Origin: Octopus vulgaris
Taxonomy: Eukaryota
DNA length: 64,000 bases
Assembly (NCBI GenBank): GCA_951406725.2
Contig: OX597817.1
Span: 58,032,001-58,096,000 of the forward strand
Direction: 5' to 3'
Shown here: one piece after another, positions 6,523 through 56,131 of the stretch
Layout: every line of letters begins with the position of its first letter
How positions within the stretch are numbered: the first letter of the stretch is position 1
Notes under the pieces: generated by a model
What the model saw: the letters and a program-made list of their open reading frames with translations, nothing else
The model's database searches: none
Told to the model about the DNA's origin: nothing
Position numbers and translations under genes: made by a program

Positions 6523-6631
6523 GTATAACGTACATGAGTGGTATATGCAGTGGTAAATATTCCGCATCTGTTGTGAACAGTGGATCTGAAAACCTTGGTA
6601 TTATCACCTCAACCCGCCTCCTGGGGCACAG
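6523..6631 (+). CDS. Internal exon of an ADAMTS/M12B-like gene: active-site helix region (G)ITYMSGICSGKYSASVVNSGSENLGIITSTRLLGH(S), with a degenerate zinc motif
   Basis: Acceptor ttttcccacccggtttAG and donor CAG|gtaatc; 109 nt, phase 1 to 2. The translation follows the reprolysin pattern GxAYxGxIC...SxSVVED...TxAHELGH. Upstream exons were not found in the window. Confidence 0.85.
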
Positions 6632-6984
6632 GTAATCCTTTAATCCGTTCTTTTTTATACATTGTAATAATCTATAATTTATTCTACCACACCCGACACA
6701 CCCAGCGTAAATCTTTTTTTTTATGAGAAACAGTTAGTCAAGACATTCGACAGTATATCGAGTATATATTGCAACAAAATTGTAACGGGTGGATTTTCAT
6801 GTCTACGAACACTTAAACATTTGAATATTATCATATTGCTTCAACAAGTTTGGCCACGTCTGTCAACAGACTGACCGCATTTAAGTGTGTCAGAAACGAT
6901 TCTTTAGATTCTTCGTGATTTTCGAGCCAACTAAAAATATCTCAACTTTCATATTGTGTTCTCTCTTCATTGCGTGTTTTGCAG

Positions 6985-7104
6985 CTTAAGCGCAGGTTAC
7001 GTGGATATACCGGGTTGTACAACAAAGGATGATGGATTTACAGGAGAAACATTTGGTCTGTGTTCTATAAACTCCATAAAAAACAAAATCGAGAAACTAT
7101 CGAG
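6985..7104 (+). CDS. Exon: end of M12B-like domain LSAGYVDIPGCTTKDDGFTGETFGLCSINSIKNKIEKLS
   Basis: Acceptor gtgttttgcAG and donor GAG|gtaagt; 120 nt, phase 2 to 2. Aligns by eye to LGAxHD...C...FSxCS...L at the end of reprolysin domains. Confidence 0.85.
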
Positions 7105-7734
7105 GTAAGTAACATTATACAATACACAATCTCCGGGGTCGTTGTTATTTCCTAATCGATTTTCTTCCGTTGATTTATTGAACAATTTCAAGTTTCATTA
7201 CATCCCAAGTCAGTCATCACTTCAATCAGTCATAGTGTTTTCCCTCATTCCCGATTGTGAATATTTCAGTTTATTTACGTCTTTAACGAACTTCAGAAAA
7301 GAGCAATAAACGTCATATTTTAATTAAATTTTCTTGTACTTTACTATTATAACATCAAATGGTGTGAATCTTCTGTCCGTCCGTCCGTCCTTCCATCCAT
7401 CCATCCATCCATCCATCCATCCATCCATCCATCTATACATACATACATATATATATATATATATATATATATATATATATATATATAAATGCACTTATAT
7501 ATATTATATGACAAACAGATATATGTATGTGTGTGTTAGAGTTATGACTTTTCCATAACCTAACAACCCCATACTGCAATTCAGTGAATAATTTCATAAA
7601 AGTCAGGAAACTAACATTTATTTTGCCGTATTTGCAAACAATATCACCCCCAGCTTAAGAAATCGTCCTCGTTATTGGTTTTTTGTATTGTTTATACTTC
7701 TTTTTGGGGTGGTGGGTACTATATATGATAGATC

Positions 7735-7900
7735 GCTAGCCACTACATATTCTTTATTTTCTCTCCTGGTTTCTTTCTGTGGAAGAGCGTAGGCTCGAAA
7801 CGTTAAAGACTTTTTTCACTTCCCGAGCGTTATACTAATACATATGTTTGTTGTCTACATCACCTGTCTTTGTCTTTTGTTTTTTTGTGAATTCTACCCT
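7735..7900 (+). mobile_element. Short Penelope-like/retrozyme-like repeat with a hammerhead-like motif
   Basis: Homologous to 33215-33372. Contains tcttt-CTGTGGA-a-gagc-gtag-gctc-GAAA-cgtt-aaaga and ends in (TA)n. Confidence 0.55.
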
Positions 7901-8341
7901 ATATATATATATATATATATATATATATACACATATTTGTATTTTCTCATAGCTCCCATGGTTACTGAGATAATCTACTATAATAATAATACTCTTGTGT
8001 TTATGAATGGGAAAGGAAGGGGTAATAGATGAATAAGGAAGGAAGGGGTGATGTCATACTTGGTAGTGGGATGATGAAAACTGTACGCAGAAAAAATAAA
8101 TCAAACAGCGTTTCAACTCTGTGTTTGTATGTAAAAGTGAGGTATGTGAATGCGTGTGTGTGTGTGCGTGTGTGTGTGCGTATGTGTGTTTGTGTGTATA
8201 TGTGCGTGTGCGCGCGCAATGGAAGTGGGATGGTTCATCTTTGTTCACTTAGTATTAATGACATGCATGCATACATACAAACATGCATATACATACATAT
8301 ATAAATACATACATACATACATACATACATACATAGTTACA

Positions 8342-52275: not shown

Positions 52276-53769
52276 AGCCTATTTCAGTTCGGGAGTGAAT
52301 CGTCATCACCTGTCACTTAGTTGGAAACACATGTCTCATAGCTGCAATAGAATGCTGTACCACCAACAATAAGGTGATTTCTCTAAGACATCATCCAGAA
52401 ATCTATCAAAGTCCATTGACACATTTCTCAATACATACTGCTGTTATGACTTCAGACCCTCATTGTATGCCTCCATCATAGATGGGTAGATTTGCTAGTA
52501 CTGAAAATAGGCTCAATTAACTTTCGAAATATTCATGGAAAAAACATCCTCAACAAGTACACACACACACACACACACACACACACACACACACACACAC
52601 ACACACACACACACACACACACACACACACACATACAAACACACACACACACACAAACACACACACAAACACACACACACACACACACACAAATATCTAC
52701 ATGCCTATATGTATATGCATATGTATCTTATCTATCTATCTATCTATCTATCTATCTATCGATCGATCGATCGATCTAGCAGTCTGTATGTCTGTCTGTC
52801 AGTCTGTCTGTCTGTCTGTATCTCTCGGTGCATGTATAAATAAGCCATTAGATTTAGTATAAGAATAGTAGATAGATATGGAAAAGTTAAATAATTTATG
52901 AGAAAATACACACACACACACACACATACAAGTGTGTATATACACATATATGCATACATACAAATATATGCCTGCGTGTGTATGTGCGCGCGCACGGGTG
53001 TATTAACAAGTATATGGCATATATACACATGTTCTATATCTAGTATACGACTGCAAATAGAACGTATATATATATGTATGTATATATATATATATATATA
53101 TATACATACATATATACACACATTTTAAAAATGGTTTTTCATGGTATTTGGTAATGCAACAGACACGGAACCTTTCACAAAAGCAGCTGGAAATAACAAC
53201 TTCACTTTATAAATAGTCATCGTCTCGACTGATCGCTTCCTTTTTACACTGTATTTCTGTTGAAGGTCAACATCCAAGGAAGGGATTTAGTGGTAATACT
53301 AGTAGTAGCAGCAGCAGCAGCAGCAGCAGTTGTTTTTGATGTTCTTTTTATGTTTTTTTTTATTTTTTATATTCTTGTTTCTCACTCTGTTGCATTTCTA
53401 AAGGTCACACACTGAATGTGATTGTTATGTTCGTGTGTGTGTGTGTGTGTGTGTGTGTGTGTGTGTGTGTGTGTGTGTGTGTGTGTGTGTTTGTGTGTGT
53501 GTGTGTGTGCGTGTGGAAGGTGCGTGGGCGAGAGAGGGATAAGGACGGTTAGAGGATGGAAATGAAGAACGTAGAATCGTGTATTGAAATATATAGTCCA
53601 CGTCTATAGGAAGATATCTAGGTTTAAACACTCCTAGTGCATCGTGTGTGTGTGATATGTATTTGGGTATACACATATACATATACACAAGTACGTTGTA
53701 TGCACATACATGTATGTGTCTATATACATACACGCTCTTACAACACATACCACTCCCGTTCATATATAT

Positions 53770-53997
53770 ATATAAAATACAAAATGGGACAAGAACGCAA
53801 AACATCCAAATAGACGATACAAAAAACACGGACAGGTCATTCGAAGCCTTTAATCTTCAATCAAGAACCGGATCATCCTTGCAATTTCGGCTGATTAATC
53901 TTGCGATTGCTCCAATCTGGCCAGCCCCAAGGAAAAAACTAAGCTAAGAGCATTAGATTCCTCGGAAAAAGGATCGAATGTGTACGAAACAAGGACA
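53770..53997. mobile_element. TA-embedded interspersed repeat (related copy at 42690-42806)
   Basis: Shared ggtcattcgaagcctttaatcttca...accggatcatc...aatttcggctgattaa. Possibly Penelope-derived. Confidence 0.6.
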
Positions 53998-54751
53998 TAT
54001 ATATATATATATATATATATATATATATATATATATATTCAGTACAGGAAGTAGAATAGAGGCGTTTTAAGTAGGTTACCACCGACCATATTGATTGCAG
54101 CTAAAAGTTTCCACACACATGTAGGCACCTATTTCTTCAGTCAATCATTTTGGAATTAAGCTTACATGAAAAAGAATATGACAGTCAGAAGATAGTCTTC
54201 TGGTTAGCTCAGATCTTGTACTAGCATGATATGAGTTCAACAGTAAACTGGCAGACATCGTGTAAATATGGACCAGGGCAACTCGCTCTGAAGGAAGTCA
54301 AATCCAGGCGGTCGCTAATCAGTATGACATATTTATTTATGGAAACCCTTGCGATAATAACAACCGTAAAGTTTGCGAAATAATCTACTGGAAGGCGATG
54401 GATGTAAAAACAAGGGCAAGTATATTGTATGTACTTTAAGTACATACCATCCTTATAGAGGAAAAACAGCCCTAACATTGGTGAAAGAATTGATGACAAT
54501 TGGAGTGAGTACAGTAAAATATGTCAGTATCCGGTCTCTATTAACATTCCCCGGAAAAATATAATGGTTTGATAGACAACATCGAGGACAAATATAGAAC
54601 TTAATATACCTCAGGTAATCGATGTAAATAATATAATACTAGAACGCTATAATCTGTGAAAGCACAATATAGCTTTATTGCAATACGAAGAAAATGACTA
54701 ATCAGTGATACAAATATATATACACATATGTAGATCAACAAGCACAACGGA

Positions 54752-55040
54752 CAGCCTTGTGAATGATTTGGCAGACAAAAACCGAAAGAAGCCCGTCGTG
54801 TGTATGTGTATGTGGTTGTGTGTGCGTGTGCGTGTTTGTTCCCCACCATCGCTTGACAACCAGCATTGGTGTGTTTATGTCCCCGTAACTTAGCGGTTCG
54901 GTGAATGAGACCGATAGATAAGTACCAGGCTTAAAATCTAAAAAAATAAGTACTGGTGTCGATTCGTTCGACTAAAATTCTTCAAGGCGGTGCCGCAGCA
55001 TGGCCGCAGTCAAACGGCTGAAACAGACAAAAGATAAAAA
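54752..55040 (+). mobile_element. SINE family B, 5'-truncated
   Basis: gccttgtgaatgatttgg...gaaagaagcccgtcg...cttgacaacc...gcagcatggccgcagtc. Confidence 0.8.
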
Positions 55041-55676
55041 AAACTATTGTTGTTGTTGTGAACATAATCAAGTCAGGTTTTAAGTTGTTGTGACATCCTA
55101 AAAATGCTACATTACGAAGTGCGTCACCAGAATATATATATTAACATACGACCTCGTTGTTTGTTTGTTTTTAAATCTTATTCGAGGGCAAGCATAGGCT
55201 GCACCACTCCTCTCAATTGTAACAATCAGAAACTATCTTTTGAATAAATTATAAATAAAATATGTACAAATATGCAAGACTTGAAATAGTTGTTATGCAG
55301 ACAAAATCGCCGTCCAGGTAAAAATATGTTGATTACTTTGCTCATTGGATCTGAGATTAAATTTTTTCTTCAGGTTTTCGATCCGTTTCTAGATACAACT
55401 TTATTCTTCCTTCTCTCGGTTCTCCATATTGTTGTCAGACAAAGATTATTGCTTTTCTCTTTTTCATTTTTGAGAAAAATAATCACAATTGCTTTTTCAA
55501 TTATAAATTCTTTCGACCACAGGAAATAAATACGAATTGATTACATTCTTTTCTATATATACAATAAATAATCGTTTATATTTTATCCATTATCGTTACT
55601 ATTAAATAGAACTTAGGCAATCTCTTGTACTTTCTGATAATAAATTTTAATATTTTCTTCTCCCTTTCTTCCACAG

Positions 55677-56131
55677 TACCAAAGCATTTTGGATTCGGTC
55701 CCAACCTCATACAGAGTCGCCTGCATTACCCAATGCATTCGATGAAAGCTGCAGTTGAAGTGGAACAGAGGCGAATTCCAGTGGCCAAGAACAGGTTCAT
55801 CCAAAAGACAAGAATGGCTCTGAGAAGGCCAATGGCTCGATTAAATGTGATGCGGAGTCCCAGGAGAAGAATGTTCGCACCTGTCATGAATCACCAAAGA
55901 ATAAGAAACAAAACAGTTCCACGGTTTCAAGTGAACCAAAATTCACCTCTTGCCCAGGCCCGTAGGCTGGGTAGGTTTGGTTTCTTCCCGAGACCAATGT
56001 ACCCGTTACGTGGGAATTCAAACCAAGGAAGGATGCGACAGATGGATTCAGGTCGGCGTTTCATGGCTGGAAGATGGAGAAGAAGGGAATCAAGATCAGC
56101 AAAGAAGCTTTGGGATGCAAAAAAGCATTAA
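55677..56131 (+). CDS. Probable terminal exon: 151-aa Arg/Met/Pro/Gln-rich basic tail VPKHFGFGPNLIQSR...KKLWDAKKH*
   Basis: Strong acceptor ttttcttctccctttcttccacAG. Phase 1 matches the donor at 37051. It is a 455-nt non-repetitive open frame in AT-rich surroundings. Linkage across the 18.6-kb intron is inferred from phase and composition. Confidence 0.7.

Follow-up and report, generated by a model that had tools for sequence, protein, structure and literature searches.

A gene for an ADAMTS-type protein in Octopus vulgaris

The DNA studied here is a 64,000-nucleotide stretch of contig OX597817.1 from Octopus vulgaris (assembly GCA_951406725.2, positions 58,032,001 to 58,096,000, forward strand), which is referred to as the window and numbered from its first letter. 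It is AT-rich, microsatellite-laden animal sequence. Ten plus-strand exons between positions 6523 and 56131 encode a large part of a protein with a dead M12B protease domain, a disintegrin-like domain, two six-cysteine modules, a threonine-rich stalk and a strongly basic tail. All ten exons begin behind an AG acceptor and the first nine are followed by a GT donor. In agreement with the initial annotation, which had put the chain at about 520 amino acids without phase conflict, the phases run 1-2, 2-2, 2-0, 0-0, 0-1 and four times 1-1, with the last exon reading from phase 1 into a TAA stop codon, and the translation comprises 523 amino acids without an internal stop. It equals residues 348-870 of isoform X2 of LOC115210557 from Octopus sinensis (XP_036358235.1, P0005 in our sequence set) with 0 differences; compared with the O. 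bimaculoides protein, 9 of the 523 residues differ. Given this agreement, the reality of the exon chain is far beyond chance. The proposal that the exons encode one protein on an ADAMTS-like scaffold is supported. Residue numbers follow P0005 throughout.

When the last exon was searched among proteins of 264-2000 amino acids, two of the 162 candidates carried it, namely the 870-residue O. bimaculoides LOC106878760 and an 867-residue relative that is 80% identical (P0002). The LOC106878760 cluster has eight members, including isoforms X1 and X2 of O. sinensis LOC115210557, two Argonauta hians models and the GenBank model CAI9721044.1, which is 100% identical to the window translation over the exons in common. 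LOC115210557 is an annotated yet uncharacterised gene, and literature searches by topic or accession found no paper on it. Isoform X1 (XP_036358234.1) results from a 30-nt cassette exon at 16290-16319 on the plus strand, which X2 lacks, one O. bimaculoides model shares and the original ten-exon chain overlooked. Its ten residues, one of them a cysteine, lie between the last helix and the last cysteine of the M12B domain.

The M12B domain has lost its catalytic site

The first exon in the window (6523-6631, phase 1-2) covers the M12B domain up to the zinc-motif helix, and the next one (6985-7104, phase 2-2) the end of the domain. The exon at 26146-26269 (phase 2-0) contributes the last M12B cysteine, a linker and the start of the disintegrin-like domain. 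The first exon alone gives a weak Pfam Reprolysin match (E 0.12), and the protein matches Reprolysin (PF01421) with 30.3 bits against a cut-off of 20.8. Structure searches returned ADAM8, ADAM22, ADAMTS1 and ADAMTS5 with Z scores of about 21 and root-mean-square deviations (rmsd) of 2.1-2.6 over some 190 residues; for the ADAM22 ectodomain the values were Z 21.3 and rmsd 2.1 over 188 residues.

The zinc-binding signature HExxHxxGxxH is lost. Arg379-Leu380-x-x-His383, encoded at 6615-6629, replaces His-Glu-x-x-His, so that only His383 is kept, and Tyr389 takes the place of the third zinc histidine. The Tyr-Ile-Met columns of the Met-turn, 75-91% conserved in 56 active relatives, fall in a gap of the octopus protein, where about 14 residues have been deleted after the zinc motif and the side of the substrate cleft is remodelled. 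Of 63 positions that are at least 80% conserved in the same 56 relatives, 52 are kept and 11 lost, and the cysteines are retained despite the dead zinc site. The dead motif is identical in all four sequences of the octopod clade (O. sinensis, O. bimaculoides, Argonauta and P0002). With two zinc histidines, the catalytic glutamate and the Met-turn gone, the domain cannot be a metzincin protease and, as judged from its sequence, is catalytically dead, as had been noticed from the window.

The N-terminal part of the protein is known from the full-length records, which start with a hydrophobic, signal-like peptide (residues 1-23 of P0005, by inspection). Secretion, presumed in the initial annotation, is therefore likely. 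A structure model of P0005 built on 69 sequences has a mean predicted local distance difference test (pLDDT) score of 70.1, compared with 25.9 for an earlier model from 10 close sequences. It comprises a beta-rich prodomain (about 33-190), the M12B domain (211-430), the disintegrin-like domain (445-510) and helical modules (520-597), and pLDDT is mostly 85-96 in these parts, somewhat lower in the prodomain. Stalk and tail are disordered, with pLDDT below 50 across most of 604-835. Prodomain and M12B domain together align with the ADAM17 zymogen (Z 24.0, 317 residues, rmsd 4.1). Among the 65 relatives whose domain start could be recognised, 50 have a furin-type site just upstream of the catalytic domain, as against none of the four octopod-clade sequences. 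Because this site is absent, the prodomain likely stays attached, and the model suggests that it is packed on the dead catalytic domain.

Disintegrin-like domain, cysteine modules and stalk

The disintegrin-like domain begins in exon 26146-26269, continues through the exon at 29543-29647 (phase 0-0) and ends in that at 31634-31685 (phase 0-1). It is the cysteine-rich domain recognised at the outset and matches Pfam ADAMTS_CR_2 above the cut-off (33.4 and 38.8 bits against 27.3). Residues 442-513 of the model match an ADAMTS13 fragment with a Z score of 6.2.

Each of the two following exons (32462-32599 and 33989-34120, both phase 1-1) encodes a six-cysteine module, with cysteine spacings of 14-10-4-0-2 and 8-4-11-0-2, respectively. 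Both modules end in CCxxC and are sited where the PLAC domain stands in the layout of MIG-17. They had been described as two PLAC-like repeats, a label that we keep for cysteine pattern and position only, since Pfam PLAC matched neither the octopus protein nor its single exons, nor any of 15 relatives at E<=0.5. The modules do not align with each other (BLASTP E 0.12). Structure searches are dominated by the protease fold and barely probe this region. Pfam ShK did not match either. In accordance with the initial annotation, no thrombospondin repeat was found: a TSP1 search of P0001, P0002 and the individual exons returned nothing at Pfam E<=1, and there is no space in the chain of exons where one could fit.

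Exon 8 (35453-35611, phase 1-1) encodes a stalk of 53 residues. At 30% threonine it is Thr-rich as had been reported; its acidity is only mild (net charge -4, isoelectric point 4.25). Its composition makes O-glycosylation likely. A below-cut-off Pfam match of the stalk to Slx4 was rejected as compositional.

A basic tail found only in the octopod clade

The tail is encoded by exon 9 (36875-37051, phase 1-1; 59 residues, net charge +15) and exon 10 (55677-56131; 151 mostly disordered residues, net charge +33), which contains a furin-type site, Arg-Trp-Arg-Arg, at residues 852-855 and ends with the stop codon. A candidate polyadenylation signal, AATAAA, lies 209 nt past the stop (56340-56345, plus strand). 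The tail thus spans 210 residues, or about 195 if counted from the first arginine pair, close to the 190 or so first estimated. With 38 arginines and 16 lysines against six aspartates and glutamates, its net charge amounts to +48. Calculated per 150 residues, the charge of +37 is the highest when compared with the 144 relatives whose sequence continues beyond the last module; P0002 reaches +36 and the next relative +26.

In the family scan of representatives and in the cluster listings described below, only Octopus, Argonauta and P0002 showed this tail. Among the fetched relatives it matched nothing except two P0002-like fragments, and it had no usable match in the Atlas, blanks that are no proof of absence. 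Neither exon 9 nor exon 10 matched a Pfam family at E<=1. The initial view of a novel, lineage-specific basic C-terminus stands: as far as sequence comparison goes, the tail is the novel part of the protein and is lineage-restricted. A relationship to reflectins, which are likewise cationic, was considered and rejected; no reflectin family matched, and a Met-Asp-containing stretch near the end of the tail is not kept in P0002. The active relative P0135 from Mizuhopecten yessoensis also has an Arg-rich C-terminus (99 residues, net charge +26) with no sequence match to the octopus tail; basic ends may have arisen more than once.

The absence of a transmembrane segment, noted before, also holds. 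The highest 19-residue hydropathy is 0.85 in the 523 residues and 0.76 past the modules, and a heuristic scan of the three introns past module 2 found no unused hydrophobic phase-1 exon. Among the 144 relatives, 35 of the 64 long tails contain a transmembrane-like stretch and 29 of the 80 short ones have a hydrophobic end.

A comparison of P0005 with P0002 gave identities of 82% for the M12B domain, 98% and 100% for modules 1 and 2, 91% for the stalk and 90-100% for residues 676-719 of the tail, falling to 77% and then 60% along the last exon. This pattern is contrary to expectation and places the strongest selection on the modules and the beginning of the tail. Of the 19 basic pairs past residue 600, 17 are kept in both proteins, and the furin-type site at 852-855 is conserved.

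A large molluscan family with probable recurrent loss of catalysis

A scan of 1.84 billion representatives at E<=0.001 yielded 470 relatives. Beyond P0002 and two similar fragments, the best are 28-38% identical. Twenty clusters were looked up besides the octopod ones; 16 are named, all molluscan, and seven more relatives are molluscan by name, three of them new. All 19 distinct named clusters are hence molluscan, from bivalves, gastropods, chitons and octopus. Nine pattern matches on metagenome contigs included no relative. The zinc motif was scored with its glycine relaxed, as strict HExxHxxGxxH overcounts dead relatives. Among the 147 relatives with at least 300 residues, HExxHxxxxxH is intact in 127, substituted in 11 and gapped, truncated or shifted in 9.

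A midpoint-rooted FastTree phylogeny was calculated from 393 columns and 144 of 151 core sequences, seven being excluded for low coverage. The octopod clade (support 1.0) sits on a stem of 1.06 without a resolved sister. P0002 falls outside Octopus plus Argonauta (support 0.99) and could be an old paralog. Nine other dead sequences cluster with active relatives (support 0.99), which indicates that catalysis was probably lost more than once. The dead protease had been counted among the oddities of the octopus architecture; with dead members in other mollusc lineages, that view is not supported.

The nine-member dead clade (P0051, P0058, P0076, P0077, P0084, P0091, P0104, P0121 and P0122; named members are from Mactra, Saccostrea and Sinanodonta) has a common altered motif and long stalks without a membrane anchor, and is apparently an independent pseudoprotease family. 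O. sinensis also possesses a second dead paralog (P0159, XP_029653907.1, LOC115227129), whose zinc motif carries other substitutions; it has two modules and ends in a hydrophobic C-terminus.

Comparison with MIG-17, Sona and other ADAMTS-type proteins

MIG-17 consists of signal sequence, prodomain, metalloprotease, disintegrin and PLAC domains (PMC4856095), and Sona, whose closest counterpart is MIG-17, of prodomain, protease, disintegrin-like and cysteine-rich domains (PMC4989167). Compared by these published layouts, the octopus protein has the signal-like peptide, prodomain, M12B and disintegrin-like domains in the same order and likewise no thrombospondin repeat. Its top Atlas match is a 'sol narae' cluster (0.96), and NCBI labels oyster relatives 'mig-17'. 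MIG-17 requires its catalytic activity and removes its prodomain by self-cleavage (PMC4856095). The octopus protein, in contrast, is dead, has lost the furin site and continues with two modules, the stalk and the 210-residue basic tail. The molluscan relatives, automatically named ADAMTS-like or mig-17-like and at best 30-36% identical, have the same order of M12B domain, ADAMTS_CR_2 and six-cysteine repeats, with CxxGD...CCxxC modules like those of the octopus protein, 1 to 20 CCxxC motifs and often a Ser/Thr stalk. They differ in that most keep the zinc motif, many end in transmembrane or hydrophobic segments and none has the octopus tail.

A protein of limpet adhesive mucus, P-vulgata_8, is reported as secreted, reprolysin or 'mig-17'-like, devoid of HEXXH and Ser/Pro/Thr-rich from residue 550 (PMC7333891). 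By this description it resembles the octopus protein in design; its sequence is incomplete at the C-terminus. The overall architecture had been regarded as unusual. This is not supported, because everything up to the Thr stalk follows the MIG-17/Sona layout and recurs in hundreds of relatives, and a dead protein of similar design is reported from limpet mucus. The architecture is ordinary up to the stalk.

Vertebrate ADAMTS proteases have homologous M12B and disintegrin-like domains (best matches ADAMTS1, 4, 5 and 13); the octopus protein lacks their thrombospondin repeat and spacer. ADAMTS-like proteins have no protease domain at all, in contrast to the octopus protein with its dead one. ADAM22 and other catalytically inactive ADAMs use a dead M12B fold as a binding unit, and ADAM22 matches the octopus protein structurally. 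Proteins of the ADAM22 type are, however, anchored as type I membrane proteins, and their disintegrin and EGF domains are genuine.

A possible non-enzymatic tether and its alternatives

Tentatively, we favour a function as a secreted, non-enzymatic tether of the MIG-17/Sona type with a tail that binds polyanions, a reading that we rate as possible rather than probable. The folded head would bind a protein partner, the presumably glycosylated stalk would serve as a spacer, and the Arg-rich tail would attach the protein to polyanions, for example sulfated glycosaminoglycans or acidic mucins, and so likely take over from the membrane anchor that many relatives carry there. Cleavage at the furin-type site 852-855 or at other conserved basic pairs could release it from the matrix. 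Like secretion, retention of the prodomain and O-glycosylation of the stalk, polyanion binding and matrix release are steps that we infer. The long form of PDGF-A, VEGF189 and extracellular superoxide dismutase are secreted proteins that stay bound to heparan sulfate by virtue of basic C-terminal exons, and the proposed tether would be analogous to these. The limpet protein makes a role in a gland secretion or an extracellular structure plausible.

Several observations weigh against such a tether. Two classical heparin-binding consensus patterns match only 1 and 3 times, and the first half of the tail is 77-100% conserved, which exceeds the need of simple charge binding and suggests a specific partner or processing. 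The argument for replacement of an anchor is only positional because 29 of the 64 long-tailed relatives also have no transmembrane stretch. The signal peptide was judged by eye. The gene was not found in supplements on brain (PMC9712504), ink (PMC10142993), skin mucus (PMC10138644), salivary glands (PMC7693380 and PMC11525497) and oviducal gland (PMC8976471), which were searched by accession, three of them also by motif, with identifiers that may differ and with PMC9712504, PMC10138644 and PMC7693380 covered in part. Finally, two gene models disagree with the exon chain. In Argonauta, adjacent models of 566 (partial) and 257 residues are split exactly before the stalk exon, and CAI9721044.1 quits exon 10 early for a short exon at 57382-57420. 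An ADAMTS12-like protein in octopus skin mucus (LOC115209844) is the product of another gene, and the main text of a preprint on the argonaut eggcase does not mention ADAM, reprolysin or metalloprotease (bioRxiv 10.1101/2021.07.10.451900). The short open stretch at 57382-57420 is either an artefact or a minor splice form.

The division of the Argonauta hians gene, together with a last intron of 18.6 kb, would fit stalk and tail exons (35453-56131) that belong to another transcript and were fused by the gene models. We hold this to be highly improbable. These exons are connected to those upstream in the RefSeq models for two species and in a GenBank model, the phases chain without conflict, and P0002 is a single open frame of 867 residues from signal-like peptide to stop, on source contigs of at most 4203 bases (103 contigs). 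Since the matches of two genomic-type fragments with identical exon 9 sequence (P0110 and P0169) end at both exon borders seen in the window, introns flank exon 9 there, and P0002 must derive from spliced RNA. In another reading the dead protease is a carrier precursor from whose tail convertases, acting at the conserved basic pairs, could release cationic peptides, mainly a 23-residue, one-disulfide, C-terminally amidated loop from exon 9 for host defence or signalling. This is compatible with tethering and, taken by itself, unlikely in our estimation. The candidate layout at 36919-37005 (plus strand) consists of a dibasic pair (36919-36924), 23 residues with two cysteines (36925-36993) and Gly-Lys-Arg-Arg (36994-37005). 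The dibasic pair, the cysteines, 13 residues apart, and Gly-Lys-Arg-Arg are kept in P0005 and P0002, the first pair changing from Arg-Arg to Lys-Arg; residues 676-704 are 90% identical, and both AlphaFold models contain, with low confidence, a two-strand hairpin at 681-694. None of the 64 long relative tails has this layout, and it adds to the case that most basic pairs beyond residue 600 are preserved. When exon 9 was shuffled with its cysteines fixed, the full layout arose in 28 of 20000 shuffles and glycine plus a dibasic pair after the second cysteine in 345 of 20000, figures that overstate the significance because the pattern was defined after seeing the sequence. In a tail with 26% lysine plus arginine, any glycine followed by a dibasic pair appeared in 10086 of 20000 shuffles. 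An Arg-Lys-Lys inside the loop might itself be cut, and the 15 residues after Gly-Lys-Arg-Arg are also 100% conserved, so the constraint is not confined to the peptide. Exon 9 had no solved-structure match at E<=10; we take the loop to resemble beta-hairpin cationic defence peptides, a likeness that the structure-sequence search did not confirm. Motif searches in two salivary-gland peptide supplements were empty. The combined proposal, a dead ADAMTS-type protease co-opted in octopods as precursor of the amidated, disulfide-looped cationic peptide (36925-36993) and of Arg-rich peptides, with a tail that also anchors in matrix or mucus, appears to us rather unlikely.

It is distinctly unlikely that the protein is instead a decoy or regulator of active M12B paralogs, in which the dead domain binds substrates, inhibitors or partners and the tail serves for positioning only. 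Although catalysis is gone, the fold and the surface modules persist, inactive ADAMs such as ADAM22 act as receptors, and further dead members exist in the clade of nine and in LOC115227129. However, the deletion of about 14 residues past the motif remodels the cleft side, a retained prodomain would cover the cleft, and conservation is lower in the M12B domain (82%). A role in venom or saliva, where a cationic tail damages prey tissue or sticks to it, is very unlikely. Venom genes are typically fast-evolving, but the modules are 98-100% conserved; moreover, the enzyme is dead, and the two sets of salivary-gland supplements, one of them searched in part, gave no match. Snake venom metalloproteinases are homologous, and in a study on Hapalochlaena an octopod reprolysin (M12B) gene is discussed as shifted in expression, presumably away from the posterior salivary gland (PMC7656900); that gene could not be matched to LOC115210557.

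Neither tethering nor peptide release would overturn a general principle. Short ADAMTS-type proteins have expanded greatly in molluscs, an expansion that has hardly been described, and the octopus protein illustrates the loss of enzyme function together with the gain of a strongly conserved basic tail in the octopod line. Should the tail be a matrix anchor, it would replace a membrane anchor by a soluble device based on charge and make the protein a candidate constituent of the matrix, mucus or glue of cephalopods, which would fit the dead relative reported from limpet adhesive. Should exon 9 yield an amidated loop, a new bioactive peptide for cephalopod defence or signalling would lie behind a pseudoenzyme. 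Standard precursor screens would miss it because it is located 680 residues into a protease-like protein.

Repeats and mobile elements in the window

No Rfam family matched within the window. Judging motifs by eye, we take 35910-36620 and 30170-31090 to be decayed remnants of mariner/Tc1-like transposases; the frame at 36227-36574 within the former had no Pfam match at E<=0.001. The last intron contains a long interspersed nuclear element (LINE) at 47481-50071, with its endonuclease part on the minus strand (47481-48683) and its reverse transcriptase part on the plus strand (48352-49566), and is a 5'-inverted insertion. Pfam RVT_1 matched, Exo_endo_phos_2 remained below cut-off, and a GATA/GA microsatellite is situated at the end of the element.

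A 5.3-kb stretch at 2-5301 is repeated at 8343-13602 with 98.1% identity, and an assembly gap of 100 N occupies 5302-5401. The repeat probably stems from two haplotypes that were assembled one after the other. The first two exons may be present once more upstream of the window, and such a duplicate would explain why CAI9721044.1 contains its second exon twice along with a spurious exon at 5514-5600.

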